NCBI GenBank assembly: GCA_017410455.1
Contig: JAFQQT010000027.1
Span: 15,028-79,027 of the forward strand
Direction: 5' to 3'
Source: Clostridia bacterium
GTDB taxonomy: Bacteria > Bacillota > Clostridia > Christensenellales > Aristaeellaceae
Length of the DNA stretch: 64,000 nucleotides
A program made the translations under genes and the position numbers. The stretch's first letter is position 1; every line of letters begins with the position of its first letter. This document shows positions 7,153 to 61,738 of the stretch, piece by piece. The notes beneath the pieces were generated by a model. That model ran no database searches. It worked only from the letters and a program-made list of their open reading frames with translations, and was not told where the DNA came from.

Positions 7153-9150
7153 ATGCCCAGACGCGACTGGGGCGAAACGCTGGAAACCAAGATCGCCATG
7201 CTGCCCGAATCCCCCGGCTGCTATCTGATGAAGGACGCCGGGGGCACGATCATCTACGTCGGCAAGGCGGTGAATCTCAAGAACCGTGTCCGCAGCTATT
7301 TCCGCGACGCCGACCACACCCCGAAGGTCGCCGCGATGGTCGAAAACATCGCCGACTTCGACGTCCTGCTGTGCGACAGCAACCTGGAGGCCCTGTGCCT
7401 GGAATGCAACCTGATCAAGCGCCACCGCCCTCACTACAACATCCTCCTCAAGGACGACAAGCATTACCCCTACATCTGCGTCAACCTGCGCGAACCTTTC
7501 CCCCGGCTGGAGCTGGCGCGGCGCATGCCTGAAGGCGGCAAGAAGGACGGCATGAAGTACTTCGGCCCTTACATCGGCGCCACCGCCGTCCGCCAGGTGA
7601 TCGAGGCCGTGCGCGGCGTATTCCCCCTGCGCACCTGCCGCAAGGACCTGCCGCTGAAGAACCCCTGCCGCCCCTGCGTCAACTACGAGATCGGCAAATG
7701 CATGGCCCCCTGCGCCGGCAAGTGCACCGAGGAAGCCTACTGGGACATGATGGACGGCGTGCTGGCCTTCCTGGGCGGCGACTACGACCAGGTGCTGAAG
7801 GTGCTGCACAGGGAGATGATGGACTGTGCCGCGCAGATGAAATACGAGCGCGCCGCCGCCGTCCGCGACAAGATCCGCGACATCGAGGGCCTGATGGAGC
7901 GGCAGATCGCCATCCGCACCGAGCGGAGCGAACAGGACGTCATCGCCCTGGCCCAGGACGGGCTGGACGCGATGGTGCACATCTTCTACGTCCGCGGCGG
8001 CCGCATGATCGGCGGCGATCACTTCGCCCTGCCCCGCGAGGGCAGCGAGGCCCCCGGCGAGGTGCTGGCGGGCTTCCTCACCCAGTATTATGAGGATGGC
8101 AACCTCATCCCGCGAAATGTGCTGGTGCAGACCCTGACCGAGGGCGGACGCGAGCAGATGGAGCAATGGCTGCGCCAGCAGAAGGGCGCGGCGGTGACGC
8201 TGCTGACCCCCCAGCGTGGCGAGAAGCACGACCTGATCCTCCTGGCGGCCAAGAACGCCGCCGATGCGCTGGAGAAGCGCAACGCAAAGGCCTCCGTCCG
8301 CCAGGAGCGCACCACCGGCGCCTGCGCTGCCCTGGCCAGGGCTCTGGGCCTGGAAAAGCCGCCCCGGCGCATCGAGGGCTACGACATCTCCAACACCCAG
8401 GGCGTGCTGAGCGTGGCCAGCATGGTCGTTTTCATCGACGGCGTGGCGGCAAAGAAGGAGTACCGGCACTTCCGCATCAAGACGGTGGAGGGCGCAAATG
8501 ACTTCGCGTCCCTCAACGAGGTGCTGGGCCGCCGCTTTGCCCGGGGTCTGCAGGAGAAGGCCGAGCGCGAGGCAGCCGGCCTGCCCGCCATCGGCGGCAA
8601 GTTCAGCGACCTGCCCGACCTGGTGCTCATCGACGGCGGCCCCCAGCAGCTGCGCTTTGCAAGGCAGGCGCTGCTGGATATGGGGGTTCGTGTGAAGGTC
8701 GGGCTTCAGCCCGACGAGCATGTCGATTGCTCGCAATCGACGTGCGAAGCCTGCGACGCGCCGGAAGGCGTGGCGCAGGCCGAAGTAGCCATGTTCGGCC
8801 TGGCGAAGAAGCAGGAGGAGATCTTCCTGCCCGACCGGGAGGAGCCGATCCTGCTGGATCACCACACGCCGGAACTGCATCTGATCCAGCGCGTGCGCGA
8901 CGAGGCCCACCGCTTCTGCATCACTCACCACCGCGGTCTGCGCGGCAAGGCCAGCATCCACAGCCAGCTGGAGGACATCCCCGGCATCGGCCCCAAGCGC
9001 CGCAAGGCCCTGCTGACGAAGCTGGGTTCCATGAAGGCCATCTGCGAGGCCACAGAAGAGCAGCTCCTCGCCGTCCCCGGTATGACGAAGGCGGCTGCGG
9101 AGGCCGTCATGAAGTGGGCAGAGGCCACGGCGAAGAATCATTCCCAATAA
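7153..9150 (+). CDS. uvrC: excinuclease ABC subunit C
   Basis: Track ORF trimmed to MPRRDWG at 7153. GIY-YIG block PGCYLMKDAGGTIIYVGKAVNLKNRVRSYF and C-terminal HhH IPGIGPKRRKALL. Confidence 0.95.
   Translation: MPRRDWGETLETKIAMLPESPGCYLMKDAGGTIIYVGKAVNLKNRVRSYFRDADHTPKVAAMVENIADFDVLLCDSNLEALCLECNLIKRHRPHYNILLKDDKHYPYICVNLREPFPRLELARRMPEGGKKDGMKYFGPYIGATAVRQVIEAVRGVFPLRTCRKDLPLKNPCRPCVNYEIGKCMAPCAGKCTEEAYWDMMDGVLAFLGGDYDQVLKVLHREMMDCAAQMKYERAAAVRDKIRDIEGLMERQIAIRTERSEQDVIALAQDGLDAMVHIFYVRGGRMIGGDHFALPREGSEAPGEVLAGFLTQYYEDGNLIPRNVLVQTLTEGGREQMEQWLRQQKGAAVTLLTPQRGEKHDLILLAAKNAADALEKRNAKASVRQERTTGACAALARALGLEKPPRRIEGYDISNTQGVLSVASMVVFIDGVAAKKEYRHFRIKTVEGANDFASLNEVLGRRFARGLQEKAEREAAGLPAIGGKFSDLPDLVLIDGGPQQLRFARQALLDMGVRVKVGLQPDEHVDCSQSTCEACDAPEGVAQAEVAMFGLAKKQEEIFLPDREEPILLDHHTPELHLIQRVRDEAHRFCITHHRGLRGKASIHSQLEDIPGIGPKRRKALLTKLGSMKAICEATEEQLLAVPGMTKAAAEAVMKWAEATAKNHSQ
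8689..8784 (+). repeat. in-frame three-hairpin intragenic element, copy 1 (inside uvrC, sense)
   Basis: H1 GTCGGGC-TTCA-GCCCGAC at 8698-8715. H2 TCGATTGC-TC-GCAATCGA at 8723-8740. H3 interrupted 13-bp stem at 8749-8780. Encodes RVKVGLQPDEHVDCSQSTCEACDAPEGVAQAE between conserved UvrC blocks. Confidence 0.8.
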
Positions 9151-13534: not shown

Positions 13535-13555
13535 AGAACACGAAAATCGCATCCA

Positions 13556-13639
13556 CCGCTGGGGGTGCGGCACGGGAAACCGCCGCCGCTGAGATACACC
13601 CTTGGAACCTGTGTAGGTCATCCTACCGTAGGGAAGCGG
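13556..13639 (+). promoter_or_regulatory. TPP (THI-box) riboswitch
   Basis: CTGGGGGTGC...CTGAGATACACCC..GGAACCTG...GGTCATCCTACCGTAGGGAAGCGG matches the THI element. A GGCA-ATTCG-TGCC hairpin followed by GTTTT lies just downstream. Confidence 0.85.
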
Positions 13640-13792
13640 GGCAATTCGTGCCGTTTTCGTGTAGATCCGGACTACAGGAAAACCCCGAATGGCCATCCTG
13701 CTTTCCCGCGTACACACGCGGGTTTTTCATTTGCGTAAGAGTCGGGGAAACTCCGGCTTGACAGGATGCGTCGCAAAGGAGGATTTTCACCC

Positions 13793-15510: not shown

Positions 15511-15621
15511 TCATGAATTATGAATTAGGAATGTATCCTGCGGCACGGCCTTTACAAGCCGGCACAACACTCCAAATTCATCATTCATAATTCATAATTC
15601 ATAATTCATAAGTCATAATTA
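15505..15621. repeat. AT-rich module pair forming a long inverted repeat
   Basis: AATTAATCATGAATTATGAATTAGGAATG at 15505-15533 faces CCAAATTCATCATTCATAATTCATAATTCATAATTCATAAGTCATAATT at 15572-15621. Confidence 0.8.
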
Positions 15622-15637
15622 ACCCAAGGGGGGTTCC

Positions 15638-16231: not shown

Positions 16232-16700
16232 CGAATACCAGCGCATCCGCAGGGGCGACTATCAGCCACCCGCATGCCGCATCACCCGATTGTCGCTAAG
16301 GGGCGCACAACGCCAGGCTGCTGCGCATCAGCGCTGCCCTCTGACGACCCACATCGCCGCAGGACACCTCATCACCGCCTGCGGGCGGAGTTTCCCCTCA
16401 AGGGGAAGCCGGGGAAGAATCCGTGCTGGGCAGCTGAAGGCTCTCCCTCAGGGAGAGCTGTCCCGAAGGCACCGAGAGGGGGCTCCCGGCAACGCGCAAC
16501 CATGCCACAGTCCCACGCGGGCGCAAGCATGACCGAAGGCACTCTACTCAATCGCGAGCCGGGTCCAGCGTCACGCTGGTGTCATTTCAGACGCGAAAAT
16601 GTATCTTTGGAGCAAAGCCTATGGCCAAACCCTGTGGCCTGTGCTATACTGCAAGCGTGGTAAGAACCCGGGAAACCCCCGGTAACCCTTGAAGGAAGGA
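16232..16700 (+). repeat. composite GC-rich intergenic repeat (contains the C module and the CTATCAG hairpin)
   Basis: GGCGACTATCAGCCACC hairpin near 16253. CACCTCATCACCGCCTGCGGGCGGAGTTTCCCCTCAAGGGGAAGCCGGGG at 16365-16414. Confidence 0.75.
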
Positions 16701-25042: not shown

Positions 25043-25918
25043 ATGGGTGCATGGAGCGTTTCCATTACCGGCAATGACACAGCGCGTGACCTGCTCACCG
25101 AGTATTCCGCCGCCTTCAGCCGCTACGCCCCCGCAGAGGCCGTCGCCCTGCTGGACGCTTATGTCCGCCGGGATTTCCGCGCCGGCCCCGGCGACGAGGA
25201 CTGGGTGGACTACCGCTACTCGCTGGCGCAGTTCATGTGGAAGAAGGGCGTGCTGACCGATGCAGTCCGGGACGAGGTCATCGCCATGATCGACCGGGGC
25301 GAATGCCTCGACCTCTACGAGGACGCCGCCACCCTGCGCAAGCGGCAGAAGGTGCTGGCGGAGTTCCGGGCGCAGCTGCTCTCCCCGCAGCCGCCGCGCA
25401 AGCCCATCCGCGTCAGCCGCGCGCAGATGACCCTGCCCTACGAAGTGGGCGACGTGATCGCCATGCGCCTGCACACGGCCGCATGCCGCACCGAGTACCA
25501 CCGCCCCCGCCTGTCCGCAGAGGCCTTCCGCCAGCTGGACGGCCAGTGGTTCGTCTGGCAAATGGTGAAGGCGCATGTGTCCTGGCGTTCCGCCGTTGTG
25601 CCGGAAGTGTTCGACGTGTGGCCGTATTACCGGATGTACGCCGCCGTCTTCCCGGAGGTCCCCACCCTGGCGCAGCTGGCGGACGTGCCCTTCGTGCGCT
25701 ACAGCGACGTATGGCACCCCACCGTCCGCACGGCGCTGATCACCGGCAACAACACCCACACGGGCTACCGCAGGCGCGAGGCGCAGCTGATCGGGCGCGT
25801 CGATGTGACGCTGCCCCGGGGCGAGGCATACAACGAAACGATGATCCTCCCCGCCTGCCTGCCCCCGACCTTCGAGACCGACGCGGAGATCGCCTGCCTG
25901 CTCTACGGGCGGCAGTGA
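25043..25918 (+). CDS. hypothetical protein, DUF4259-like N-terminus
   Basis: MGAWSVSITGNDTARDLL resembles the MGAWG..FDND.A.D start of DUF4259 as I remember it. Confidence 0.45.
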   Translation: MGAWSVSITGNDTARDLLTEYSAAFSRYAPAEAVALLDAYVRRDFRAGPGDEDWVDYRYSLAQFMWKKGVLTDAVRDEVIAMIDRGECLDLYEDAATLRKRQKVLAEFRAQLLSPQPPRKPIRVSRAQMTLPYEVGDVIAMRLHTAACRTEYHRPRLSAEAFRQLDGQWFVWQMVKAHVSWRSAVVPEVFDVWPYYRMYAAVFPEVPTLAQLADVPFVRYSDVWHPTVRTALITGNNTHTGYRRREAQLIGRVDVTLPRGEAYNETMILPACLPPTFETDAEIACLLYGRQ

Positions 25919-25929
25919 ACGGCGGACAG

Positions 25930-26562
25930 GCCCGGAACGGTTGCAGGGGCGGATATCAGCCGCCCGCATCACCGCTGTTCCGGATGGCCGCAAAGGCTCG
26001 CGCCACATCGCACAATCCCTTCCCGCCACGCCCACCTCATCACCGCCTGCGGGCGGAGCTTCCCCTCAAGGGGAAGCCGGGGATGCCCGGGCGGGCGCGT
26101 TCCTTTGCGGGTTGCGCGTTGGTGCGGCATGCGGGAGAGGCAAACCCTCCCCTACGGCATGGGGGAGCGAAACAGAACGGAGCGTCCGTAGGGACGGCTA
26201 TCAGCCGCCCGCCTCGCGCCTGCCCCGGATTGCCGCAAGGGCGCATACCGCCTCACACCCCATGCGCCCGCTTGCCGCTGTTCCGGATGGCCGCAAAGAT
26301 ACGCACCGCCTCACGCACCGTCAGACCGCTGCAGCGCCCCGCCGCCGCATGACACCTCATCACCGCCTGCGGGCGGAGCTTCCCCTCAAGGGGAAGCCGG
26401 GGATGCTCGGGCGGGCGCGTTCCTTTGCGGGTTGCGCGTTGGTGCGGCATGCGGGAGAGGCAAGCCCCTCCCCTACGGCACAGGGGGACGGATCAAGCCG
26501 GACGCCCGCGCTCCCCATCAGCCCCCGCCATCCAAATTCATAATTCCTAATTCATAATTCCC
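25930..26562 (-). repeat. composite intergenic repeat, two tandem ~300-320 bp units ending in the AT-rich module
   Basis: C/D module at 26033-26140 and 26353-26460. CTGTTCCGGATGGCCGCAAAG appears twice. CTATCAG hairpins. AT module at 26532-26562. Confidence 0.85.
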
Positions 26563-26575
26563 GCTTCCTCCCACG

Positions 26576-27829: not shown

Positions 27830-28407
27830 ATGTTGTCGTGCCCGCAGGCGGGAGCCTTTGGCATGTGGTGCCGGGGATTTCTCCGGAAATCCGGTTCAGT
27901 CCGGAGGGCGAAAAGCCGCCCTCTCCGGGGGAGGTTCGTTCCTTTGCGAGGTGTGCGTTGGTGCGGCATGGGGCGGAGCGAACCGGAACGGAGCGTCCGC
28001 AGGGGCGGCTATCAGCCGCCCGACACGCGTCTACCCCGGATTGCTGCAAAGGCGTACACCGCCTCACACCCCACGCGCCCGCTTGCCGGCTGTTCCGGAT
28101 GGGCACAGAGGCATGCACAGCCTCACACATTTCTCTTCCCCCGCAAGACACCTCATCACCGCCTGCGGGCGGAGCTTCCCCTCAAGGGGAAGCCGGGGGA
28201 GATGCCGGGGCGGGGGCGTTCCTTTGCAGGTTGTGCGTTGGTGCGGCATGGGGGCGGAGCGAACCGGAACGGAGCATCCGCAGGGGCAGCTATCAGCCGC
28301 CCGCCTCGCTGCTGCCCCGGATTGCTGCAAAGGCTTGCGCAGCGGGCTGCCCACCCCCGTCCCCACCAGCTAAATTCCGAATTCATAATTCATAATTCAT
28401 AATTCCC
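27830..28407 (-). repeat. composite intergenic repeat, two tandem ~282 bp units ending in the AT-rich module
   Basis: D module at 27937-27974 and C/D module at 28149-28254. GGCGGCTATCAGCCGCC hairpins near 28003 and 28285. AT module at 28371-28407 abuts the NYN gene stop. Confidence 0.85.
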
Positions 28408-29406
28408 TTATAGGAGCTTGATCAGCATCGTCCGCTGCTCGTCCATCTCGACCTCCACCAGGCCGTCCTTCTCCAGCTGCTTCATCACATCGGAGAAGCG
28501 CTTGAAGCCGATGGCGCGCTCGTTGAAGCCGGGGTAGGTGGTGAGGATGTCCGCCTTGAGGATGGAGGGGTTCACGCGCTCGAAGCCGCCCTCCTTGTAG
28601 GCCTGGAGCTGGGCGGCGAAGGCGTCGCGCCAGTTCTCCCGGGTCAGCTGGGACTGGGCCTCGGCAGCGTCACCGCTGTTCAGGCGCACCATCACGTTGA
28701 AGTTGTCGTTCGTCACGTGGATGTCTCCGAACCGGCTGGCCAGGCGCGTCAGGAGCTTGTAGAAGGACGCGCAGCCGTAGGTCTTCTCATTGAAGTCCGG
28801 GCGCAGGCGGGTCAGCACGCCCTTGAGCTCAGAGGCGTACATCTCGTCCATGCCGCTGGACTCGTCCACGATGGACACCACCAGCTTGTTCAGCTCGGCC
28901 TCGTCCGCGGCCTCCTCGCTCACGGCAGCGGCGGTGCGCTGCTTCTTTGCGCGGGCGGGAGCGGCGGCCTTGCGGCTCATGCCCTCCAGGAACTGGAACT
29001 CGTTGCACGCGTTGATGAACACATTGCTGGCGGCTTCCGAGCGGCTGATGCCCAGGACGAACTTGCCCATCGACTTCAGCTTGCCCACCAGGGGGACGTA
29101 GTCGCTGTCGCCGGACACGATGCAGAAGCTGTCGATCAGCGGGTTCGAATAAGCCACGGACAGCGCGTCGATGACCAGCTGGATGTCGGCATTGTTCTTC
29201 TGGGCGATGCCGTAGCGCAGGCTGGGCACAACGGTGAAGGTGTTGGAGAGCAGCGTCTCCTTCAGGGCGGAGAAGCGGTCGGTGTAGCCGTAGACCATGC
29301 CCAGGAGGATATCGCCGCGGATCTTGACCTTCTCCAGCACGCTTTGCAGGGTCTCCACCCGCGCGCCGCAGTTCTCCAGGTCGATAAACACAGCAAATTT
29401 TGCCAT
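28408..29406 (-). CDS. NYN-domain (PIN-like RNase) protein with C-terminal OST-HTH/LOTUS-like region
   Basis: Track ORF trimmed to MAKFAVFIDLEN at 29406. CIVSGDSDYVPLV motif. Confidence 0.8.
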   Translation of the reverse strand: MAKFAVFIDLENCGARVETLQSVLEKVKIRGDILLGMVYGYTDRFSALKETLLSNTFTVVPSLRYGIAQKNNADIQLVIDALSVAYSNPLIDSFCIVSGDSDYVPLVGKLKSMGKFVLGISRSEAASNVFINACNEFQFLEGMSRKAAAPARAKKQRTAAAVSEEAADEAELNKLVVSIVDESSGMDEMYASELKGVLTRLRPDFNEKTYGCASFYKLLTRLASRFGDIHVTNDNFNVMVRLNSGDAAEAQSQLTRENWRDAFAAQLQAYKEGGFERVNPSILKADILTTYPGFNERAIGFKRFSDVMKQLEKDGLVEVEMDEQRTMLIKLL

Positions 29407-32214: not shown

Positions 32215-32575
32215 TCATCGGGGAGGGATCCTTGGGTGTGCGCTTGTGCGGCCGGGTGAATCAAGCAGCATGAGGCTGGTACGGGGCTGTTGTGGGGGGC
32301 GTATTTCCCGTTGACTGTGCGGGCATGCCGCATGCAGGCAACCAATGGTCGCCCCTACGGGGACACACGCCACCTCACGCCCCGACGGCGGCGTATTTCC
32401 GTTGACTGCGCAGTCATGCCGCATGCGGGCCGCTGACAGCCACCCCGACAAGGCTTCCGGCTCATCCGGCCTCTCCTGCGCCCCGCCCCCACCATCCAAA
32501 TTCATAATTCCTAATTCCTAATTCATAATTCCTGATCCTCCCCCGTCCCCACCATCCAGATTCCGAATTCAAAAC
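32215..32575 (-). repeat. composite intergenic repeat with one full and one partial AT-rich module
   Basis: Internal direct repeat GGCGTATTTCC(C)GTTGACTG..CATGCCGCATGC. AT modules at 32496-32538 and 32556-32575. Confidence 0.75.
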
Positions 32576-37895: not shown

Positions 37896-38355
37896 CCTGA
37901 CAGGCCGATCCCTCCGGGGGTGATACCTGATCAGCCCCGATCGTGGGGGGTAAGGGGGGCAGGACAGAGCGCAGCGATGGCCTGACCGATCCCACCGGAG
38001 GTGATAAGGCACAGGCCGAGCGCAGCGACAGCCTGATCAGGCCTCCCCCATCAAAGGGGAAAGGGCACAGGCTGAGCGCAGCGATGGCCTGATCAGGCCT
38101 CCCCAATCAAAGGGGAACAGGCGCAGGCCAAGCGCAGCGATGGCCTGATCAGGTCTCCCCAATCAAAGGGGGAAAGGGCACAGGCCGAGCGCAGCGATGG
38201 CCCGATCAGGCCTCCCCAATCAAAGGGGAAAGGGCGCAGGCCAAGCGCAGCGATGGCCCACCCCCACCAACGGTGGCAAGGCAAGCCCATCGCAGCGCCC
38301 CCATCCCATCCCCACCCGATCGGTGGAAAGGGGTACCAGCCGAGCTCCGCAATGG
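37896..38355. repeat. tandem array of about 9 units of ~56 bp
   Basis: Units start at 37896, 37926, 37981, 38032, 38088, 38143, 38201, 38257 and ~38300. Core unit: CCTGATCAGGCCTCCCCAATCAAAGGGGAAAGGGCACAGGCCGAGCGCAGCGATGG. Confidence 0.85.
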
Positions 38356-38369
38356 CCCCGTCCCACAAA

Positions 38370-38404
38370 CCAAATTCCTGATCCATAATTCCTAATTCAT
38401 AATT
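38370..38404 (-). repeat. AT-rich module copy
   Basis: Minus-sense AATTATGAATTAGGAATTATGGATCAGGAATTTGG, directly after the pepM terminator. Confidence 0.8.
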
Positions 38405-38443: not shown

Positions 38444-39736
38444 TCACTGATTGGGCAGCAGCGTCAGGATCTCTTTAATGGACATGCACAGCTGATCAGC
38501 CTCGCGGCTGCGGCCGTTCTCCAGGATCGACCGGGCCGTGGCCTGCATGGCCGGGAAGGCGCTGCGGATCAGGTGGTTGGCGTGGATGACGACGTTCACC
38601 CCGTGGGCGGCCAGCTCGGCCTCGGTGGCGCCGTTGTAGGTCGTGGGCACGACGATGATGGGCGTCTTCGGGTCCACCCGGCGGAAGGCGTCGCAGAAGG
38701 TGTACACCTCGTCCGGGGTCTTCGACTTGGAGTGGATCATGATGCCGTCGGCCCCGGCCTTCACATAGGCGTGGCAGCGGGTCAGGGCGTCCTCCATCCC
38801 CTGCTCCAGGATCAGGCTCTCGCAGCGGGCGATGATCATGAAGTCGCGGGTCTTCCGGGCGGCCTTGCCGGCGGCGATCTTGTGGCAGAAGTCCTCGATG
38901 CTGTCCTGCACCTGCCCCACGCCCGCGCCAAAGAGGCTGTTCTTTTTCAGGCCCTTCTTGTCCTCGATGATGATGGCGGAGATGCCCATGCGCTCCAGGG
39001 TCTGCACGTTGTATACGAAGTGCTCCACCAGGCCGCCGGTGTCCCCGTCGAGGATAATGGGCTTGGTGGTGACCTCCATGATCTCCTCCAGCGTGCGCAG
39101 GCGGCTGGTCATGTCCACCAGCTCGATGTCAGGCTTGCCCTTGGCGGTGGAGTCGCACAGGCTGCTGACCCACATGGCGTCAAACTGGCGGCGGCCTGCG
39201 GGGGTCTCCACGGCGGTCTTTTCCACGATCAGGCCGGTGATGCCGTTGTGGGCCTCGCACACGCTCAGGCAGGGCTTGCAGCTCAGCAGGCGGCGCAGGC
39301 GGCTCCGGCGGGTCTCCGGCAGGGACAGCAGCGCGTCCAGCGCGGAGAGGGTCTCCTCCGTGGGCGTGTGCGTGTAGGGGAACTCGACGAGCTGTCCGCC
39401 CCACCGGGCCAGCACCTCGATCACCCTCTGGCGGATGTTGGCCTGGTAGCCCACGAGCCAGTCATCCCCGTGGACGACGACGTCCGGCTTCAGCCGGATG
39501 AGGATATCGGTGTAGTCGAGGGTCTCCTGCACCACCACGCGGCTGACGTATTTCAGGCTCTCGAACATCGCCACGCGCTCCTCCAGCGGCAGCAGCGGGT
39601 AATGCTTGTAGCTGGCCACAACCTCGTCCGTCAGGATGCCGACGGTCACTTCGCCCAGCGCCGCGGCCTTCTTGAGGATGGAGAGGTGGCCGTTGTGGAT
39701 GATGTCGGTGGAAAAGCAAATGTAGACCTGCTTCAT
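38444..39736 (-). CDS. aepX: cytidylyltransferase-PEP mutase fusion protein
   Basis: N-terminal HxGH nucleotidyltransferase motif STDIIHNGH. C-terminal PEP mutase motifs ILDGDTGG and IIIEDKKGLKKNS. Confidence 0.85.
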   Translation of the reverse strand: MKQVYICFSTDIIHNGHLSILKKAAALGEVTVGILTDEVVASYKHYPLLPLEERVAMFESLKYVSRVVVQETLDYTDILIRLKPDVVVHGDDWLVGYQANIRQRVIEVLARWGGQLVEFPYTHTPTEETLSALDALLSLPETRRSRLRRLLSCKPCLSVCEAHNGITGLIVEKTAVETPAGRRQFDAMWVSSLCDSTAKGKPDIELVDMTSRLRTLEEIMEVTTKPIILDGDTGGLVEHFVYNVQTLERMGISAIIIEDKKGLKKNSLFGAGVGQVQDSIEDFCHKIAAGKAARKTRDFMIIARCESLILEQGMEDALTRCHAYVKAGADGIMIHSKSKTPDEVYTFCDAFRRVDPKTPIIVVPTTYNGATEAELAAHGVNVVIHANHLIRSAFPAMQATARSILENGRSREADQLCMSIKEILTLLPNQ

Positions 39737-40548
39737 GCCAGTACCTCCTTGGCAAAGCGGCGGCTGACGGCTTCCTTGTCAGCCTGGTTGTCGATCTCGG
39801 CGCAGAGGAGCCCCGCCACATCCAGCGGGCGGATGGGGATCTCCCGCCACGCGGCGTTGAAGGCGTTCTCGGCGTAGACGCGGTCGTTCCCGGCGGATTC
39901 GAAGGCGGCGATCTCCTGCAGCCAGCGGTCCACCTGAGCAGCCCTGAGCAGATAGGCGGGCTGCAATTCGACGCAGTCCGGGCCGAAGACGTTCACGCCC
40001 ACCTCGCAGACGAGGCCATCGGCAATGCGCCCCTTGAAGTCCTTTTCGGGCAGGGGTAGCGTGCTGTCGACGGTCACGGCGGATACGGGGGACGCGGCCA
40101 GGCGGCGCATCACCTCCGGGTGCATCACCAGGTCGCCGTGCAGGCTGATGACATCCTGACCAGCAAGGAGTTCGCGCGCCAGGTGAACGGAGTGGATGTA
40201 ATTGGTCTCCCAGAAGCGCGGATTGTGCACGAAGCGGAAGCGGATGGGCGTGTCCAGCGAGCGGAGGTAGCCTTCCAGCATGTCGCTCAGGTGCCCGGTG
40301 GTGACCACGGCCTCGGTGACGCCGACGGCTTCCAGGCACTTCAGCTGCCAGGAGATGATGGTCTCCGGGAGTGGCCCAAGGTCGGACGCATGTCCGACTG
40401 GCGACAGCGATTCCTTGGAATCGCCGAGCGTAGCCAGCGGCGGAGCTTGCCTCCGGTGATGGCCGAGTACCGTCATGCATTTGGGGTGTTCGCGGGTCTC
40501 GTCCCCCATGCGGGAGCCGAGGCCGGAATTGAGAAGCAGTGCGATCAT
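39733..40548 (-). CDS. LicC-like nucleotidyl(cytidylyl)transferase
   Basis: Start chosen at MIALLLNSGLGSRMG (GGAGAA RBS). The stop overlaps the pepM-fusion start (ATGA). Confidence 0.7.
   Translation of the reverse strand: MIALLLNSGLGSRMGDETREHPKCMTVLGHHRRQAPPLATLGDSKESLSPVGHASDLGPLPETIISWQLKCLEAVGVTEAVVTTGHLSDMLEGYLRSLDTPIRFRFVHNPRFWETNYIHSVHLARELLAGQDVISLHGDLVMHPEVMRRLAASPVSAVTVDSTLPLPEKDFKGRIADGLVCEVGVNVFGPDCVELQPAYLLRAAQVDRWLQEIAAFESAGNDRVYAENAFNAAWREIPIRPLDVAGLLCAEIDNQADKEAVSRRFAKEVLA
40381..40455 (+). repeat. three-hairpin intragenic element, copy 4 (inside the LicC-like gene, antisense to it)
   Basis: H1 GTCGGAC-GCAT-GTCCGAC at 40381-40398. H2 GCGATTCC-TT-GGAATCGC at 40407-40424. H3 CGGAG-CTTGC-CTCCG at 40441-40455. 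Confidence 0.75.
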
Positions 40549-40599: not shown

Positions 40600-40881
40600 C
40601 TCCAGTGCTGCCGCAGGGGCGGGTGTCAGCCCCCTTCGCCGCTGGTTCACGCCGCCGCAGGACACCTCATCACCGCCTGCGGGCGGAGCTTCCCCTCAAG
40701 GGGAAGCCGGGGAGGCGCCGGGCAGGGCGTTCCATTGCGGGTTTGCGTTGGTGCGGCATGCGGGAGGACTGCAGCATAGCAGACCAGCCCAAGCCTCCCT
40801 CCCCGAGGGAGGTAGATTCCTTCGCGGCTTGAAAAGCCGGGTAGGAAGACGGAAGGGGGCCTCCTGCAGGCCTCGCCGGGC
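40600..40881 (+). repeat. composite GC-rich intergenic repeat inside the phosphonate operon
   Basis: C/D module at 40663-40767, then the CCTCCCTCCCCGAGGGAGG hairpin and others. Confidence 0.75.
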
Positions 40882-42099
40882 TCACTGCTGCAGGAAGGCC
40901 ATCAGCGCGTCGCGGTTCTGCTGCGGGGTGGTGGTGGGGCGGCCGAGGTCAGCCCGCGCACCCACGGCGCACATCACCTCGATGAAGGCCAGCTCCCCGG
41001 CGGACAGGGCCGCATCGATGGCATTGAGCAGGGTTTCGGGGCTGTTCGCGCGGCAGACGCTGCGGTAGCCCGCGGCCATGGCCAGGGCGCACAGGTCGAG
41101 GCCGCCCTCGCACACGGGCATGCCGCCGACGGTCTCATGGGCGCCATTGTTGATCACGACATGCACAAGGTTGCGGGGCTGCCGCTGGCCGATGACCGCC
41201 ATCGCGCCCAGGTGCATCAGGGCTGCGCCGTCGCCATCCAGGCACCAGATGCGGCGCTCGGGCTGCTCCATGGCAATGCCCAGGGCGATCATGGAGGCGT
41301 GGCCCATGCTGCCCACGGTGAGGAAGTCGCGCTCGTGGCCCTGATGTGCCGCCTCCCGCAGCTCGAACAGCTCGCGGCTGAGCTTGCCTGTGGTAGACAC
41401 GAAGGCGTCGCGGCTCCCCGCCAGCCGGGCGATGATCCCCACGGCCTCCTCGCGGGTCATGGCGTGGGCGTTGCCGTAGACGGGCTTGGCGGAGCAGGTG
41501 AGCGCGCCCTTCTTCACCACGATGGCCGCGGTGCGGTTGGCAGCCAGGTGGGCGCGGATGCCCGCGAAGGCCGCGTCGAAGTCGGCCTCGGTCATGGCCT
41601 TGTCCAGCACCATGTACGGCACATCCAGCAGCTCCAGCTGGCTGAGGGTCACCTGCCCCTGCTTGACATGCTGCGGCTCGTCATCAGTCGCCCTCGTCAC
41701 GCTTTGCGCGCCGGGGGTACAGGCCATCAAATCCGAGGATTTGACAGCCTTAGTCAGCGGTGAACCGCTGACCTCCGTCACGGGTTCGCCGCGCCAGCCG
41801 ACGACCAGCAGGCAGGGCATGGCGTAGACCTGAGCATCCATCAGCGAGGCCAGGGGGTTGACGGCGTTGCCCAGGCCGGAATTCTGCATGTAGCACAGCG
41901 CGGGCCGCCCGGTGGCCAGGAAATGCCCGGCGCACAGGCCGATGGCGTTGCCCTCGTTGGCGGCGACGATGTGCTTCTCCTTCACGCCCAGGGTGGCATA
42001 GAGCGTATCGCACAGCCCCTTGAGCTGCGAGTCCGGCACGCCGGTGAAGAAGTCGATGCCCGCATCACGGCAGGCGGCAAGCAGGTGCTGTGCGTCCAT
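40882..42099 (-). CDS. aepY: phosphonopyruvate decarboxylase (ThDP enzyme)
   Basis: ThDP motif GDGAALMHLGAMA..NNGAHETVGG. VVGWRGEP...DDEPQHVKQG block. Confidence 0.85.
   Translation of the reverse strand: MDAQHLLAACRDAGIDFFTGVPDSQLKGLCDTLYATLGVKEKHIVAANEGNAIGLCAGHFLATGRPALCYMQNSGLGNAVNPLASLMDAQVYAMPCLLVVGWRGEPVTEVSGSPLTKAVKSSDLMACTPGAQSVTRATDDEPQHVKQGQVTLSQLELLDVPYMVLDKAMTEADFDAAFAGIRAHLAANRTAAIVVKKGALTCSAKPVYGNAHAMTREEAVGIIARLAGSRDAFVSTTGKLSRELFELREAAHQGHERDFLTVGSMGHASMIALGIAMEQPERRIWCLDGDGAALMHLGAMAVIGQRQPRNLVHVVINNGAHETVGGMPVCEGGLDLCALAMAAGYRSVCRANSPETLLNAIDAALSAGELAFIEVMCAVGARADLGRPTTTPQQNRDALMAFLQQ
41689..41784 (-). repeat. in-frame three-hairpin intragenic element, copy 3 (inside aepY, sense)
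   Basis: Sense H1 GTCAGCGG-TTCA-CCGCTGAC (41772-41753). Sense H2 TCAAATCC-TC-GGATTTGA (41744-41727). Encodes VTEVSGSPLTKAVKSSDLMACTPGAQSVTRAT. Confidence 0.75.
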
Positions 42100-42261
42100 G
42101 TGTCATCACTCCATTGGTTGGTATTCATATCATTATAGCATATCCGGCAGGGTTTGGCTACAGGAGATTTCAGCAGGCAGCAAAAAAGGCCGCCGCACCG
42201 AAGCGCAGCGACCAAACCAGGGTACATTCCAGGACTCCCGAAAACCACCCCAGTCCACAAA

Positions 42262-42294
42262 CCCAATTCATAATTCCTGATTCCTAATTCCTGC
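42262..42294 (-). repeat. AT-rich module copy abutting the capA stop
   Basis: Minus-sense GCAGGAATTAGGAATCAGGAATTATGAATTGGG, starting 1 nt after the TGA. Confidence 0.8.
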
Positions 42295-42295
42295 T

Positions 42296-43471
42296 TCACT
42301 TCTCCTCTCCCCATTCCAGCGGATACTCCGCCACCGCATAGGTCAGGTTCTTGCCGTTCCTGAGGAGGGTGTTGACGACGGCCTCCTTGGAAGAGGCGCT
42401 GTCGTAGGGCGTGGGGGTGAAGTCGTTGCGGTTGGTGCGGGAGGAGATGCGGATGGGGATGATGCGGAAGCCCTCGTTGGCGATGACCTGGCCCTCCTCG
42501 CCCTCGGTGATGCGGAAGCGGGTCTGGAAGAGGAAGGACGTCATGTCATCGGGGTTGTTGTGGCCAGCGAAACAGAAGTTGCCCAGGCTGTAGCAGATGT
42601 ACACGCCCTTGTACTGCTCGATGGGCTGGATGCGGTGGCTGTGGTGGCCGATGACCAGATCCGCGCCGGAATCCACGGCCAGGCGGCCCATCTTGACCTG
42701 ATTGTTCGTGGGGACGTACTCCTTCTCGTTCCCCCAGTGGAAGCTGACGATCACGATGGGGTACTGCGCCTTGGCGGCGGCGATGTCTGCAGGCACCACG
42801 TCCCAGAGCTTCGAATAGCGGTCGATGCACAGGTAGGAGAGCATGGCGATCTTGACGCCCTTGACCTCGTAGACGCCCAGTTCGCCATCGCCGGACCAGA
42901 CCACGCCCGCATCCGTCAGGTGCTGCTTGGTTTCGTCCCACACGGCCTGGCCGTGATCGAGCACGTGGTTGTTCTCCAGCGACACGGCCTCGATGGAGTT
43001 GTCCGTCAGCATCCTGGTGTAGGAGGGCGGCGCGCTGAAGAGGAACTGGTTCTCCCGCTTCTCCGGGGGTACATAGGTGCTCTCGGTCAGCGTGCCCTCG
43101 AAGTTCACGATGGTCAGGTCGTCCTTTTCGAGGATGGACCTGATGTTGCGCAGAGCAAAGTTGGGGTCGCCGCCCTGGCGCTCCAGCTCATCCTCCCAGA
43201 TACTGCCCCGGTCGCGGCTGTCCCCGCCGACGGTGAAATCGCCCGTGGCGGTGATGGTGATGAGGATGGAGCCGTCCTCCTCGTAGAAGCTGGTGAGGGT
43301 CGCTTCCACCTCGATGGCCTGATCCTCCACTTCCTCAGGGATGACGATAAAGGTGTCGAACACCACGTCCGGGTCGGCGTTTTCCATCAGGTCCGCCATG
43401 GACAGCTCCTCCTCCGCAAGGGCCGCGGGGATGAGCAGCAGGCACAGCAGCAGCACGATCAGTTTGCGCAT
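42296..43471 (-). CDS. CapA-family (poly-gamma-glutamate/metallophosphatase-like) secreted protein
   Basis: Signal peptide. GHHSHRIQPIE and YSLGNFCF motifs. Confidence 0.8.
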   Translation of the reverse strand: MRKLIVLLLCLLLIPAALAEEELSMADLMENADPDVVFDTFIVIPEEVEDQAIEVEATLTSFYEEDGSILITITATGDFTVGGDSRDRGSIWEDELERQGGDPNFALRNIRSILEKDDLTIVNFEGTLTESTYVPPEKRENQFLFSAPPSYTRMLTDNSIEAVSLENNHVLDHGQAVWDETKQHLTDAGVVWSGDGELGVYEVKGVKIAMLSYLCIDRYSKLWDVVPADIAAAKAQYPIVIVSFHWGNEKEYVPTNNQVKMGRLAVDSGADLVIGHHSHRIQPIEQYKGVYICYSLGNFCFAGHNNPDDMTSFLFQTRFRITEGEEGQVIANEGFRIIPIRISSRTNRNDFTPTPYDSASSKEAVVNTLLRNGKNLTYAVAEYPLEWGEEK

Positions 43472-45270: not shown

Positions 45271-46401
45271 TCACTCGATGAACATGGCGTCGCCGAAGGA
45301 GAAGAAGCGGTAGCGCTCCTCCACCGCCTCGCGGTAGACGTCCAGGGCCGTTTCCCGGCCCATGAAGGCGCTCACCAGCATCAGGAGCGTGCTCTGCGGC
45401 AGGTGGAAGTTGGTAATCAGCGCATCCACGGCCTTGATCTTCTTGCCGGGGTAGATGAAGATGGCCGTGTCCCCCGCGCCGGGGTGGATGACGCCGTCCT
45501 CGGTGGCGACGGTCTCCAGCGTCCGCACAGAGGTGGTGCCCACGCAGATGATGCGCCCGCCCGCCGCGCGGATGGCGTTGAGCGTGTCCGCCGCCTCCTG
45601 GCTGACGTGGTAGTACTCCGAGTGCATCACATGGGTGTCCACATCCTCCACGGTGACGGGGCGGAAGGTGCCCAGCCCCACATGCAGGGTCACGGGCACG
45701 ATGGTCACGCCCTTCTGCTTCACCTTCTCCAGCAGCTCCGGGGTGAAGTGCAGACCGGCGGTGGGCGCAGCGGCAGAGCCCTCGTTCTTCGCATAGACGG
45801 TCTGGTAGCGGCTGCGGTCCTCCAGCTTCTCGTGGATGTAGGGCGGCAGGGGCATCTCGCCCAGCCTGTCCAGGATCTCCTCGAAAACGCATCCGGCCAT
45901 CCCCGGGACAAGCCCGGTGCTGGCTTCACCCGGCGATTGCGAGCAATCGCTCGGGCTCGTCGGGCTTTGCCCGACCTGATCCCACATGAAGCGCACGATG
46001 CGCCCGCCGATCTCCGGCACGGAGGACAGCACCTCGCACCGGAGCAGGCCATCGCCGAAGACGCACACCGCGCCGGGCTTGAGCCTGCGGCCCGGCTTGA
46101 CCAGCGCCTCCCAGTCCGTGGCGTTGATGCGCCTGAGCAGCAGCACCTCCACCGGGACGCTGTGGCCCTGGCTGTCGACGCCCTCCTTCACGCCCAGCAG
46201 ACGCGCCGGGATCACCTTCGTCTCGTTGATGACCAGCGCATCACCGGCGTTCAGGTAGTCGAGGATATCGTGGAAATGGCGATGCTCCCGGCTGCCGTCG
46301 CTCCGGTGGACGACCAGCATGCGGGAGTGGTCACGGGGCTCCACGGGGGTCTGGGCAATCAGCTCCTCGGGGAGGTTGTAGTCAAAATCAGCGGTTCTCA
46401 T
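45271..46401 (-). CDS. queA: S-adenosylmethionine:tRNA ribosyltransferase-isomerase
   Basis: [19 protein letters not shown] and [10 protein letters not shown] motifs. Confidence 0.95.
45900..45981 (-). repeat. in-frame three-hairpin intragenic element, copy 2 (inside queA, sense)
   Basis: Sense H1 GTCGGGC-AAA-GCCCGAC (45975-45959). Sense H2 GCGATTGC-TC-GCAATCGC (45950-45933). Sense H3 CCGGG-CTTGT-CCCGG (45917-45903). Encodes [28 protein letters not shown]. Confidence 0.8.
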
Positions 46402-51524: not shown

Positions 51525-52898
<1,374 letters not shown>

Positions 52899-52943
52899 AA
52901 GTGTTGCCTCCTTAAAATATGTGAGCATTCTTATCCACGATAT

Positions 52944-52972
52944 AGTATAACAGATGCAGGGGCTTTGTTCAA
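52944..52972 (-). promoter_or_regulatory. argH promoter (inside the repeat)
   Basis: Minus-sense TTGAAC, 17-nt spacer, TATACT. Confidence 0.55.
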
Positions 52973-53001
52973 TCTCTCAAAACAATTTGCGCAATAAAAT
53001 A

Positions 53002-53789: not shown

Positions 53790-53921
53790 TCATGACAGAT
53801 CGATTCCCCGAACGACGAACATGTCCTCCTCGGCCATGCGCTGGTCGAAGGAAATGGAAGAATGGAAATCGTCCATCAGGTGATCGGTGGATTTGGCAAA
53901 ACGGCCGCCCCAGAGTTTCAT
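53790..53921 (-). pseudogene. argH 5' remnant (34 argH codons fused to 9 foreign codons)
   Basis: MKLWGGRFAKSTDHLMDDFHSSISFDQRMAEEDMFVVRGIDLS. It carries its own copy of the promoter and RBS. Confidence 0.85.
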
Positions 53922-53997
53922 AAGTGTTGCCTCCTTAAAATATGTGAGCATTCTTATCCATGATATAGTATAACAGATGCAGGGGCTTTGTTCAATC
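53821..53997 (-). repeat. 177-bp direct repeat, distal copy
   Basis: See 52798-52974. Confidence 0.95.
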
Positions 53998-56781: not shown

Positions 56782-56877
56782 GTGTGTTGTCCCCTTTCAA
56801 ACGAAAAATGGCCGCCCGTTTTTCAACAGACAGCTCCGGGGAACGACGCAGACACTGATACCCGATGGTACATATCG

Positions 56878-56971
56878 CCTGCTCCGTCCTTTTGCCTGAG
56901 AGATTCCACCGATGCAGCCGCACCGGCTTTGCACCTTCGGCACTCACCTGTGTGAGGTTCTCCGGAGTTCC
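56878..56971 (-). promoter_or_regulatory. glycine riboswitch, single aptamer
   Basis: Minus-sense CCGGAGAACC...GTGCCGAAGGTGCAAAGCC...GAATCTCTCAGGCAAAAGGACGGAG. Confidence 0.8.
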
Positions 56972-57023
56972 CTCCCCCCGCGGGCTGTGTTGGTTCCTGC
57001 GGATATCGTCGGGAATGGTCATT

Positions 57024-60567: not shown

Positions 60568-61046
60568 CCAGGGGCCTCCGGCGGGCAGGGGCGCTGCCCC
60601 TGCACCCTGCGAAGGGACTTCGTCCCTTTCGAAACCCATTCTCGCGATTTTGTTTTGGGTTCTCCTGGAGCTGGACTCGCGTGGGAGTTGGGCGGGGGTG
60701 CGCGTCGCACGTGGCACGGAGGGTGCCACGCGCGGGCACGGCTCGCAGAGGGCGAGCCGCGCTGGTGTTGCGCTTTGCCAAGGCTCCAGGGGCCATTAAC
60801 ATTCCTCGTCGCTTTCGCCTTCGGCGAACTCCCCACTGGGGAGCCGCTCCCGCGGAATGCCCCTTTGACTCCAGCAGGGGGACTTCGTCCCCCTGCACCC
60901 CCTCGCGGCTGCGCCGCGTGCCCACCCGCCCACCCCGGGGGCTATCGCCCCCGACCCCCATGGACGCTGCTCGCTTCGCTGCGCTGCTGCTTTCCCGTGC
61001 CCACACAATCAATTCCGAATTCCGCATTCCGAATTCGTATTCCGGA
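60568..61046. repeat. GC-rich hairpin train plus an AT-rich-like module between ruvC and ruvA
   Basis: Hairpins CAGGGG-CGCT-GCCCCTG, AAGGGAC-TTC-GTCCCTT, GTGGCAC-GGAGG-GTGCCAC, CGGCTCG..CGAGCCG, GGGGGAC-TTC-GTCCCCC and GGGGG-CTATC-GCCCCC. AATTCCGAATTCCGCATTCCGAATTC at 61010-61035. Confidence 0.75.
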
Positions 61047-61055
61047 GGAATACCA

Positions 61056-61661
61056 ATGTACGCATTCATCGAAGGTCAGGTCTGCGAAAAGACCAACAAC
61101 CAGCTCGTGCTGCTGGCCGGCGGCGTAGGGTATCTGCTGAGCTGCTCCATGGCGACGCTGAACGCCGCGCCGGTCACCGGCGAAACGATGCGCTGCCATA
61201 CCTGGCTGTCTGTGCGCGAGGACGCCATGGAGCTCTTCGGGTTCGCCACGAAGGAGGAGAAGCAGCTCTTCCTCATGCTCACCGGCGTCACCGGCGTGGG
61301 GCCCAAGATGGCCCTGGCGCTGCTGTCCACGCTGAGCGTGCAGGATCTGCGCCTGGCCATCATCATGGAGGACGAGAAGACCATCGCCCGTGCCCCCGGC
61401 GTTGGCAAGAAGATCGCCCAGCGCATCGCCCTGGAGCTCAAGGACAAGCTGGGGCAGTTCAGCGTGTCCTCCGGCGCAGCGGCCAGCCCGGTGGCGGCCG
61501 TCCCTGCAGCGGCGGACAACTTCGCCCAGGCCATCGCCGGCCTGACCGCCCTGGGCTACACCCCCGGTGAGGCCCGCGACGCACTCAGCAAGGTCGAGAA
61601 CAAATCCGCCCCCGTGGACGAGCTCCTGCGCCTGGCGCTGCGCTCCATGGCGGGAATGTAA
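61056..61661 (+). CDS. ruvA: Holliday junction DNA helicase RuvA
   Basis: My own start call at MYAFIEGQV, inside the spurious 584-aa track ORF. GVTGVGPKMALALL HhH. Confidence 0.95.
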   Translation: MYAFIEGQVCEKTNNQLVLLAGGVGYLLSCSMATLNAAPVTGETMRCHTWLSVREDAMELFGFATKEEKQLFLMLTGVTGVGPKMALALLSTLSVQDLRLAIIMEDEKTIARAPGVGKKIAQRIALELKDKLGQFSVSSGAAASPVAAVPAAADNFAQAIAGLTALGYTPGEARDALSKVENKSAPVDELLRLALRSMAGM

Positions 61662-61662
61662 A

Positions 61663-61693
61663 GGGAATTATGAATTAGGAATTATGAATTGGG
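61663..61693 (+). repeat. AT-rich module copy 2 nt after the ruvA stop
   Basis: GGGAATTATGAATTAGGAATTATGAATTGGG. Confidence 0.85.
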
Positions 61694-61738
61694 TTTGTGA
61701 CGCGAACGACGGATCACAGGAGGAGAACGAGTTTCATT

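Follow-up and report, generated by a model that had tools for sequence, protein, structure and literature searches.

A three-hairpin interspersed repeat of Christensenellales lies antisense and in frame in a LicC/PntC-like transferase gene

The transferase gene and its repeat copy

The window that we analysed, a stretch of 64 kb, carries on its minus strand at 39733-40548 a gene for a LicC/PntC-like NTP transferase of 271 residues, beginning at the ATG of MIALLLNSG, whose product gives a weak match to NTP_transf_3 in Pfam. Its neighbours encode a phosphonopyruvate decarboxylase and a CTP-transferase/PEP-mutase fusion, and we therefore assign the transferase to a phosphonate cluster. Inside this gene, on the plus strand at 40378-40467, lies a full-length, 90-nt copy (copy D) of a repeat made of three hairpins: H1 (GTCGGAC-GCAT-GTCCGAC, 40381-40398, the pairing of helix 1), followed by a linker (TGGCGACA); H2 (GCGATTCC-TT-GGAATCGC, core 40407-40424, or 40401-40429 with its outer closure, in which two outer pairs, 40401-02 with 40428-29, form across an internal loop); and H3 (40433-40463), which has a conserved base, GCCA...TGGC (outer stem, 40433-36 and 40460-63), and a variable upper stem, CGGAG-CTTGC-CTCCG (inner stem, 40441-40455). 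The letters that an earlier sequence-only reading had given for H1, linker, H2 and H3 on the plus strand (40381-40455) match exactly, and the family layout it had seen there was borne out, all three hairpins being present. Our covariance model R1, of whose training set copy D is itself a member, scored copy D at 97.4 bits on the plus strand and at 31 bits on the minus strand, so that the orientation call is secure. Copy D also satisfies a pattern built from two other copies, A and B (29 matching stretches in 596 Gb of genomes), and its fold energy is -47.6 kcal/mol, compared to -37.6 +/- 3.6 for shuffles (z = -2.8).

With the element on the plus strand and the gene on the minus strand (39733-40548), copy D is antisense to its LicC-like host, as that reading had proposed, and it preserves the host ORF by adding 30 in-frame residues. 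The sole long ORF with coding composition across copy D is the transferase gene itself (GC3 0.81), in whose frame copy D reads as LGHHRRQAPPLATLGDSKESLSPVGHASDL (residues ~28-57), flanked by PKCMTV and GPLPETIISWQL. Based on the conservation of frame and of freedom from stops, copy D is probably translated as part of the transferase, and the junction-spanning tryptic peptides predicted for such a product are ...CMTVLGHHR and ESLSPVGHASDLGPLPETIISWQLK. An AlphaFold2 model computed from an alignment of 41 sequences had a mean pLDDT of 85.8 and showed residues 32-58 as coil with values below 50, the insert exiting and re-entering between the first strand-loop, which bears the PK motif, and helix 64-74; the model suggests that copy D forms a disordered loop of ~30 residues on an otherwise confident transferase fold. 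Copy D has been kept in three lineages, whose transferases are 81-89% identical.

Other copies in the window

A search with the covariance model with its filters off identified exactly four strong copies in the 64 kb, all of them in genes. Copy A (8695-8784, plus strand) is in frame in uvrC, within the RNase H-like endonuclease domain just before the GLAK strand; copy B (45892-45978, minus strand, 87 nt) is in frame in queA; and copy C (41686-41775, minus strand; 48 bits) is in frame in the phosphonopyruvate decarboxylase gene (ppd). These three are read in the sense orientation, copy D being the only one of the four that is antisense to its gene, and the strand of the window copies bears no constant relation to GC skew. 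The model hits themselves span 8695-8783, 45893-45978, 41688-41775 and 40378-40466. Three hairpins form in each of the four, including copy C, the letters of whose H1 and H2 are unlike those of other copies yet are paired (GTCAGCGG/CCGCTGAC and GTCAAATCC/GGATTTGA, respectively).

Consensus, structure and covariation

The consensus of the element runs GAG GTCGGGC-N3-4-GCCCGAC TARCGASA GCGATTGC-TT-GCAATCGC and continues after H2 with CGAGYGTA GCCAGCGC-(variable hairpin)-GTGATGGC CGAA. The covariance model R1 was built from 34 copies, and RNAalifold predicted 24 pairs in the element. In an alignment of 48 copies, which was itself fitted to the covariance model and whose pairing figures are to be read with that caveat, 98.0% of cells were paired, compared to 82.3% in column shuffles and 23-43% when the partners were slid, and 19 of the 24 pairs had changes on both sides. 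For helix 1 these figures were 97.8% of cells and five of seven pairs, and the outer R-Y pair that closes the internal loop around H2 covaries as well (GC 31, AU 11, GU 4). Paired cells included 17 G-U and five A-C combinations, an excess which gives a weak hint that the strand shown is the folding strand; the hairpins are near-palindromic and fold equally well on either strand.

The upper stem of H3 is hypervariable and self-complementary in every copy. Its behaviour is that of a hypervariable cassette: the orthologous copies located 5' of rpoB in three MAGs (L006 4780-4868, L025 371-457 and L029 5-91) all have the same H1 and H2 and almost the same flanks, but their H3 stems are unrelated, and a role of H3 as a target guide is ruled out by these differing stems in copies with the same flanks. 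Pairing is kept even in genic copies that are fixed, via non-synonymous double changes; one H3 pair in the three orthologous copies D is G.G, C-G and A-T, both changes being non-synonymous in the host frame. Part of the covariation may come from gene conversion or quasi-palindrome template switching, besides selection.

Filled and empty sites

A homology search with the transferase gave 2243 homologues at E <= 1e-10, and we inspected the best 120 of the 2243. Nearly all of these are ~241 residues long, only 3-4 residues separate PKCMT.I from ETIISWQ in the aligned ones, and the extra 30 residues are present among them only in the window protein (271 residues) and in P0001 (272 residues). Two homologues, P0100 and P0102, have another insertion, of 22 residues (TLRADSTWNAGNLPAYAKWVEDP), at a different site between VFGP and CVELQPAY.

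Contigs related to the window provided direct comparisons. The syntenic contig L001 has copy D and is without copies B and C, the length differences to the window at queA and ppd being exactly 87 and 90 nt; L004, which is 96% identical to L001, is without copy D; and a contig from impala gut (L037) has copy D at the identical site. In all three filled/empty comparisons (87, 90 and 90 nt), with the bounds of the element set as NAG-GTC...GGCCGRN, the insert equals the element and there is no target duplication (the insert in L001 is 93 nt, the flanking loop there having one extra codon). The element is thus gained or lost as an exact unit, without target-site duplication. Since the empty junctions are without GAG, we count the 5' GAG as part of the element, and the idea that it is a Shine-Dalgarno-like target was rejected on the same observation at the empty genic sites.

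A metagenome scan for licC relatives identified six loci, one of which was filled. Differences between L001 and L004 cluster near the site of copy D, where L001 resembles the window, a combination that points to allele exchange; precise excision was discarded as an inference from this pair for the same clustering of differences. The alignments thus suggest that the filled and empty licC alleles were exchanged by homologous recombination rather than made by excision.

Distribution and genomic contexts

A scan with a degenerate H1-H2 pattern of one genome each from 185,579 species (596 Gb) returned 29 stretches, all in gut MAGs of Christensenellales/Clostridia, including Ca. Limiplasma, with isolate SIG357 alone providing 14 of the 29. 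In the window and the pattern-scan loci together the covariance model identified 48 strong copies. The element was not found in GenBank phages or PLSDB plasmids, and no Rfam family overlapped it, whether the window was scanned at the gathering threshold or five copy-bearing loci at E <= 1. Three contigs in IMG/VR have a copy; the copy at L030 1609-1696 is the same as those at L040 952-1039 and L042 5614-5701 of IMG/VR, and is thus present on contigs classed as viral. The L030 copy is also the only one with a long, imperfect direct repeat in its flanks (~25 nt, ACAyGACATCCGyGATTTGAA..GCG).

Tandem arrangements occur both between and within genes. At L008 1-600 (minus strand), 5' of a divergently oriented ABC-permease-like gene, at least six units of 106 nt follow one another in tandem, differing mainly in H2, where they show three fully compensated stems (GCGATTGC, GCCAATGC and GCTCATTGC). 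The uvrC ortholog of MAG RGIG4686 (L015 6450-6724, minus strand) has three in-frame tandem units with a period of 93 nt, compared to one unit in the window. Among the single intergenic copies, at least 12 in the sense orientation end 3-25 nt before the Shine-Dalgarno sequence and ATG of a gene; the genes 3' of such leader copies are rpmI, infC, rpoB, rpoC, trpS, pstS and pstC and those for an ECF sigma factor, a GH3 glycoside hydrolase, an aminotransferase and ArsR- and XRE-type regulators. A crude gene caller placed ~16-17 of 21 intergenic copies in the same direction as the gene that follows. At L012 2001-2377 (minus strand) a copy lies between a T-box leader and the Shine-Dalgarno sequence of a tryptophanyl-tRNA synthetase gene, and an ATG within the 3' end of this copy is in frame with the start codon of the synthetase.

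About 40% of the copies are intragenic, roughly half of them sense and half antisense. Besides uvrC, queA, ppd, the licC-like gene and others, GH genes also have an in-frame copy. Antisense in-frame copies are present in at least six genes other than the transferase, and Pfam confirmed as hosts a response regulator (with the copy between MLP and GEDG), KsgA, a B12/radical SAM protein, an aldo-keto reductase and an Mrp/Nuo subunit; the B12/radical SAM protein has three copies, two sense and one antisense. Copy D is therefore no oddity, the antisense reading being a regular fate of the family. Searches at the protein level were of a kind to which a short insert in a long protein is invisible: a profile of the concatenated antisense and sense peptides found only 10 small ORFs, and phmmer with the 33-residue antisense peptide against 1.84 billion representatives gave six matches, five to unrelated low-complexity repeat proteins and one to a translated array.

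Reading frame and stop codons

Stop codons were mapped in six frames for 47 copies and compared to shuffles. Open sense frames numbered 56 (58 expected) and open antisense frames 87 (70 expected); 33 of the 47 copies were open in both orientations, where shuffles predict 35, and 14 had no open sense frame. The sequence-only reading had taken a stop-free frame in each orientation as a possible sign of neutral design; this is at chance level for an 89-mer of 65% GC (33 versus 35) and so provides no evidence that the element evolved translation neutrality. Its other suggestion, that only ORF-compatible insertions survive, fits the census. Every one of the genic copies has a length divisible by three and no stop in the host frame, and the genic inserts for which an empty site is available are 87 or 90 nt. 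While the consensus has stops after H1 (TAG/TAA) and before H3 (TAG), sense genic copies avoid them by having GAG or GAAG at these places or by an H1 loop of 3 nt, with which the stop falls into another frame. The 14 copies with no open sense frame fit a survival of ORF-compatible insertions too. The proposed stop maps and census of orientation and frame thus gave a split answer, in that genic copies are in frame and stop-free but openness as such is what chance predicts.

The modal length is 89+1 = 90 nt with the terminal A, and 32 of the 47 copies have a length of 2 mod 3, i.e., a multiple of three with the terminal A, a state commoner in genic copies (13 of 16) than in single intergenic ones (11 of 23). 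In addition, all seven independent antisense genic events use one phase, even though the copies usually have another antisense frame open as well (p of roughly 0.01 on the assumption of equal chances for the two). The modal 90 nt and the single antisense phase are hints toward an evolved translation neutrality. As H1 and H2 are palindromic and in the same phase, the sense and antisense peptides share the motifs VGxxP and DCxQS, in the order VGxxP...DCxQS in sense and DCxQS...VGxxP in antisense, and both are rich in Ser, Pro, Gly and Asp. The single phase and the shared motifs are more than survivorship by itself would explain.

Relation to known repeats

The closest precedent is the Rickettsia palindromic element (RPE; Ogata et al. 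2000, Science 290:347, cited in PMC10969869). RPEs and the present element alike are short palindromes that are interspersed as repeats and encode nothing by themselves; both lie in frame in many unrelated housekeeping genes, where the extra peptide is compatible with the fold; for the element, insertion in frame with preservation of the ORF was found in unrelated genes. The likeness is one of behaviour, architecture and host being different and the sequence very probably unrelated: RPEs are ~100-150 nt and reside in an obligate intracellular alphaproteobacterium, whereas the element is ~90 nt with three separate hairpins, has as its host a gut Firmicute of high GC (Christensenellales), can be read in either orientation, forms tandem arrays and strongly prefers sense 5' leaders. 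Given that the pattern scan hit only Christensenellales MAGs, it is very unlikely that the element belongs to the RPE sequence family, the likeness being functional only; we regard it as a new sequence family, and Christensenellales as a new bacterial group for RPE-like behaviour.

Other classes of small repeats share single traits with the element. REP sequences are single palindromes of 20-40 nt, extragenic by definition, and the associated RAYTs are Y1 HUH transposases. REP, BIME and REPIN elements resemble ours in being hairpin-based, in having covarying stems, arrays and locations within operons, and in being without terminal inverted repeats (TIRs) or target-site duplications (TSDs), and a REP-like GTAG stands directly 5' of H3 (GTAG-CCAGCGC...). 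The element, unlike the short extragenic REP palindrome, is a 90-nt fixed trio of different hairpins with ~40% of its copies inside genes. Palindrome-associated elements derived from IS200/IS605 (PATEs) likewise have subterminal hairpins at both ends, no inverted repeats, no duplication and exact insertion with no footprint in the empty allele; for the element no conserved target tetranucleotide could be defined, GAG 5' of H1 travels along with it and the left flank beyond GAG is not conserved. MIRUs are mycobacterial units of 40-100 bp, intercistronic and not hairpin trios. Like the element they occur singly or in tandem arrays of variable copy number between cistrons in the direction of transcription, and in both some copies have an ATG that either overlaps the following start codon or leads into it in frame; they differ in phylum, and MIRUs are not reported within conserved enzyme cores in both orientations.

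Origin and fate of the genic copies

Copy D is probably one copy of a selfish, non-autonomous, interspersed palindromic repeat specific to Christensenellales, whose genic survivors are in frame and translated. Insertions of the element are seen within genes as well as between them, and they may face either way. Most genic insertions would be purged, and those that survive would be a multiple of three in length, free of host-frame stops and located in surface loops. A survivor would then simply be translated, in copy D as an excursion of 30 disordered residues that separates the PK-motif strand of the nucleotidyltransferase from the helix that follows. The hairpins may be kept because a mobile single-stranded form (DNA or RNA) needs them or, alternatively, because quasi-palindrome template switching keeps their arms matched. 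The most plausible candidate for the movement is a hairpin-recognising HUH/Y1-type transposase acting on single strands; a tblastn search with IS200 TnpA and E. coli RAYT queries gave no match in the window and 350 kb of copy-bearing loci, which together are a tiny and biased sample. The comparisons of filled and empty alleles date no transposition event, and the licC alleles point to exchange by recombination, which weighs against the selfish-repeat reading.

Foremost among the rival readings is a role in 5' leaders at the level of RNA, in which the element would serve first of all as a structured RNA, e.g., to stabilise the leader or to modulate translation, and the genic copies would be its by-products. 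The sense bias in leaders and the G-U excess hint at a role at the RNA level that a purely selfish DNA model would not predict: at least 12 sense intergenic copies stand 3-25 nt before the Shine-Dalgarno sequence and ATG of unrelated genes, the direction of ~16-17 of 21 intergenic copies matches that of the next gene, covariation is strong and G-U outnumbers A-C by 17 to 5. We nevertheless regard this rival as distinctly unlikely, as half of the genic copies are antisense, one array is antisense to and divergent from its neighbour gene, the near-palindromic hairpins fold equally on both strands, there is no U-tract or other regulatory signature, and the bias could reflect counter-selection of the antisense form, with its anti-SD-like 3' end (...GACCUC). 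The downstream genes have no common function, which argues against a riboswitch-type sensor. As a minority possibility we entertain a related idea, namely that the element is adapted to genes and transcripts rather than just tolerated in them. Selection would then act on a mobile structured module as RNA or as a single strand, and its coding design would be translation-neutral whatever the orientation; the modal 90 nt, the single antisense phase, the shared peptide motifs, the pairing kept in fixed genic copies and the sense leader copies would speak for this idea.

The remaining rivals fare worse. Small size and many copies would suit a classical MITE moved by a DDE transposase, with TIRs and TSDs, as would a weak match (6/8) of the 5' end (GTCGGGCA) to the reverse-complemented 3' end (TTCGGCCA) and a flank similarity slightly greater within than between copies (p about 0.003-0.03). 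However, the insert equals the element in three filled/empty pairs with no duplication, local alignment of 40-nt flanks gave no repeat above the cross-copy background except in L030, and the ends (GAGGTC... and ...GGCCGAA) form no convincing inverted repeats; with no real TIR and no TSD, a MITE is very improbable. Even less credit can be given to removal or skipping of the element before the protein is made, by an intron-like process or translational bypass, with frame preservation incidental. Bypass elements are known from T4 gene 60 and from Magnusiomyces mitochondria, which the strong hairpins in coding sequence recall, but all genic copies here have a length that fits the host frame and no stop in it, the consensus stop is specifically lost in sense copies, and the Rfam scans gave no match to a ribozyme or intron family; keeping the frame and avoiding stops would be needless if the segment were untranslated. 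Finally, there is next to no chance that the segment is an ordinary, lineage-specific variable loop with fortuitous hairpin potential; an ordinary variable loop was the alternative that the sequence-only reading had set against itself. A surface-loop position is all that favours it, whereas the same 90 nt are present in three other genes of the window and at further loci, nearly all of the best 120 of 2243 homologues are ~241 residues long, those aligned are without the loop, and an empty contig (L004) shares 96% identity with a filled one (L001).

The preferred reading, a selfish palindromic repeat with translated genic survivors, would extend the Rickettsia type of such repeats in housekeeping enzymes to abundant, uncultured gut Firmicutes, and would show that such elements can be read on either strand. 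For annotation, it would account for lineage-specific loops of 29-31 residues in otherwise conserved proteins, and the hairpin-rich stretches could be mistaken for regulatory RNAs. For the biology of mobile elements, it offers a compact, strongly covarying element with neither TIR nor TSD, together with natural in-frame copy-number variants, e.g., one versus three units in uvrC.

Other repeats and RNAs in the window

The window has several further repeats. GC-rich intergenic repeats of 120-300 nt that form a separate family (…CACCTCATCACCGCCTGCGGGCGGAGCTTCCCCTCAAGGGGAAGCCGGGGA…) lie at 40607-40850, 16243-16415, 25916-26480 and 27925-28400, one copy of which fills the spacer between the decarboxylase and transferase genes and adjoins copy D. 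An AT-rich motif, of the AATTCATAATTC type, is repeated between genes in both orientations in this window of 64% GC (15539-15634, 26499-26566, 28337-28409, 32463-32530, 38337-38404, 42229-42296, 60994-61039 and 61661-61699). Just 3' of the PEP mutase gene, at 37997-38258, are four to five tandem units of ~56 nt (…GGGCACAGGCCGAGCGCAGCGATGGCCTGATCAGGCCTCCCCAATCAAAGGGGAA…), and 177-nt direct repeats that are 99% identical lie 1023 nt apart at 52798-52974 and 53821-53997, where the GC content falls to 57%. A TPP riboswitch (13551-13651, plus strand) and a glycine riboswitch (56874-56975, minus strand) scored above the Rfam gathering scores.
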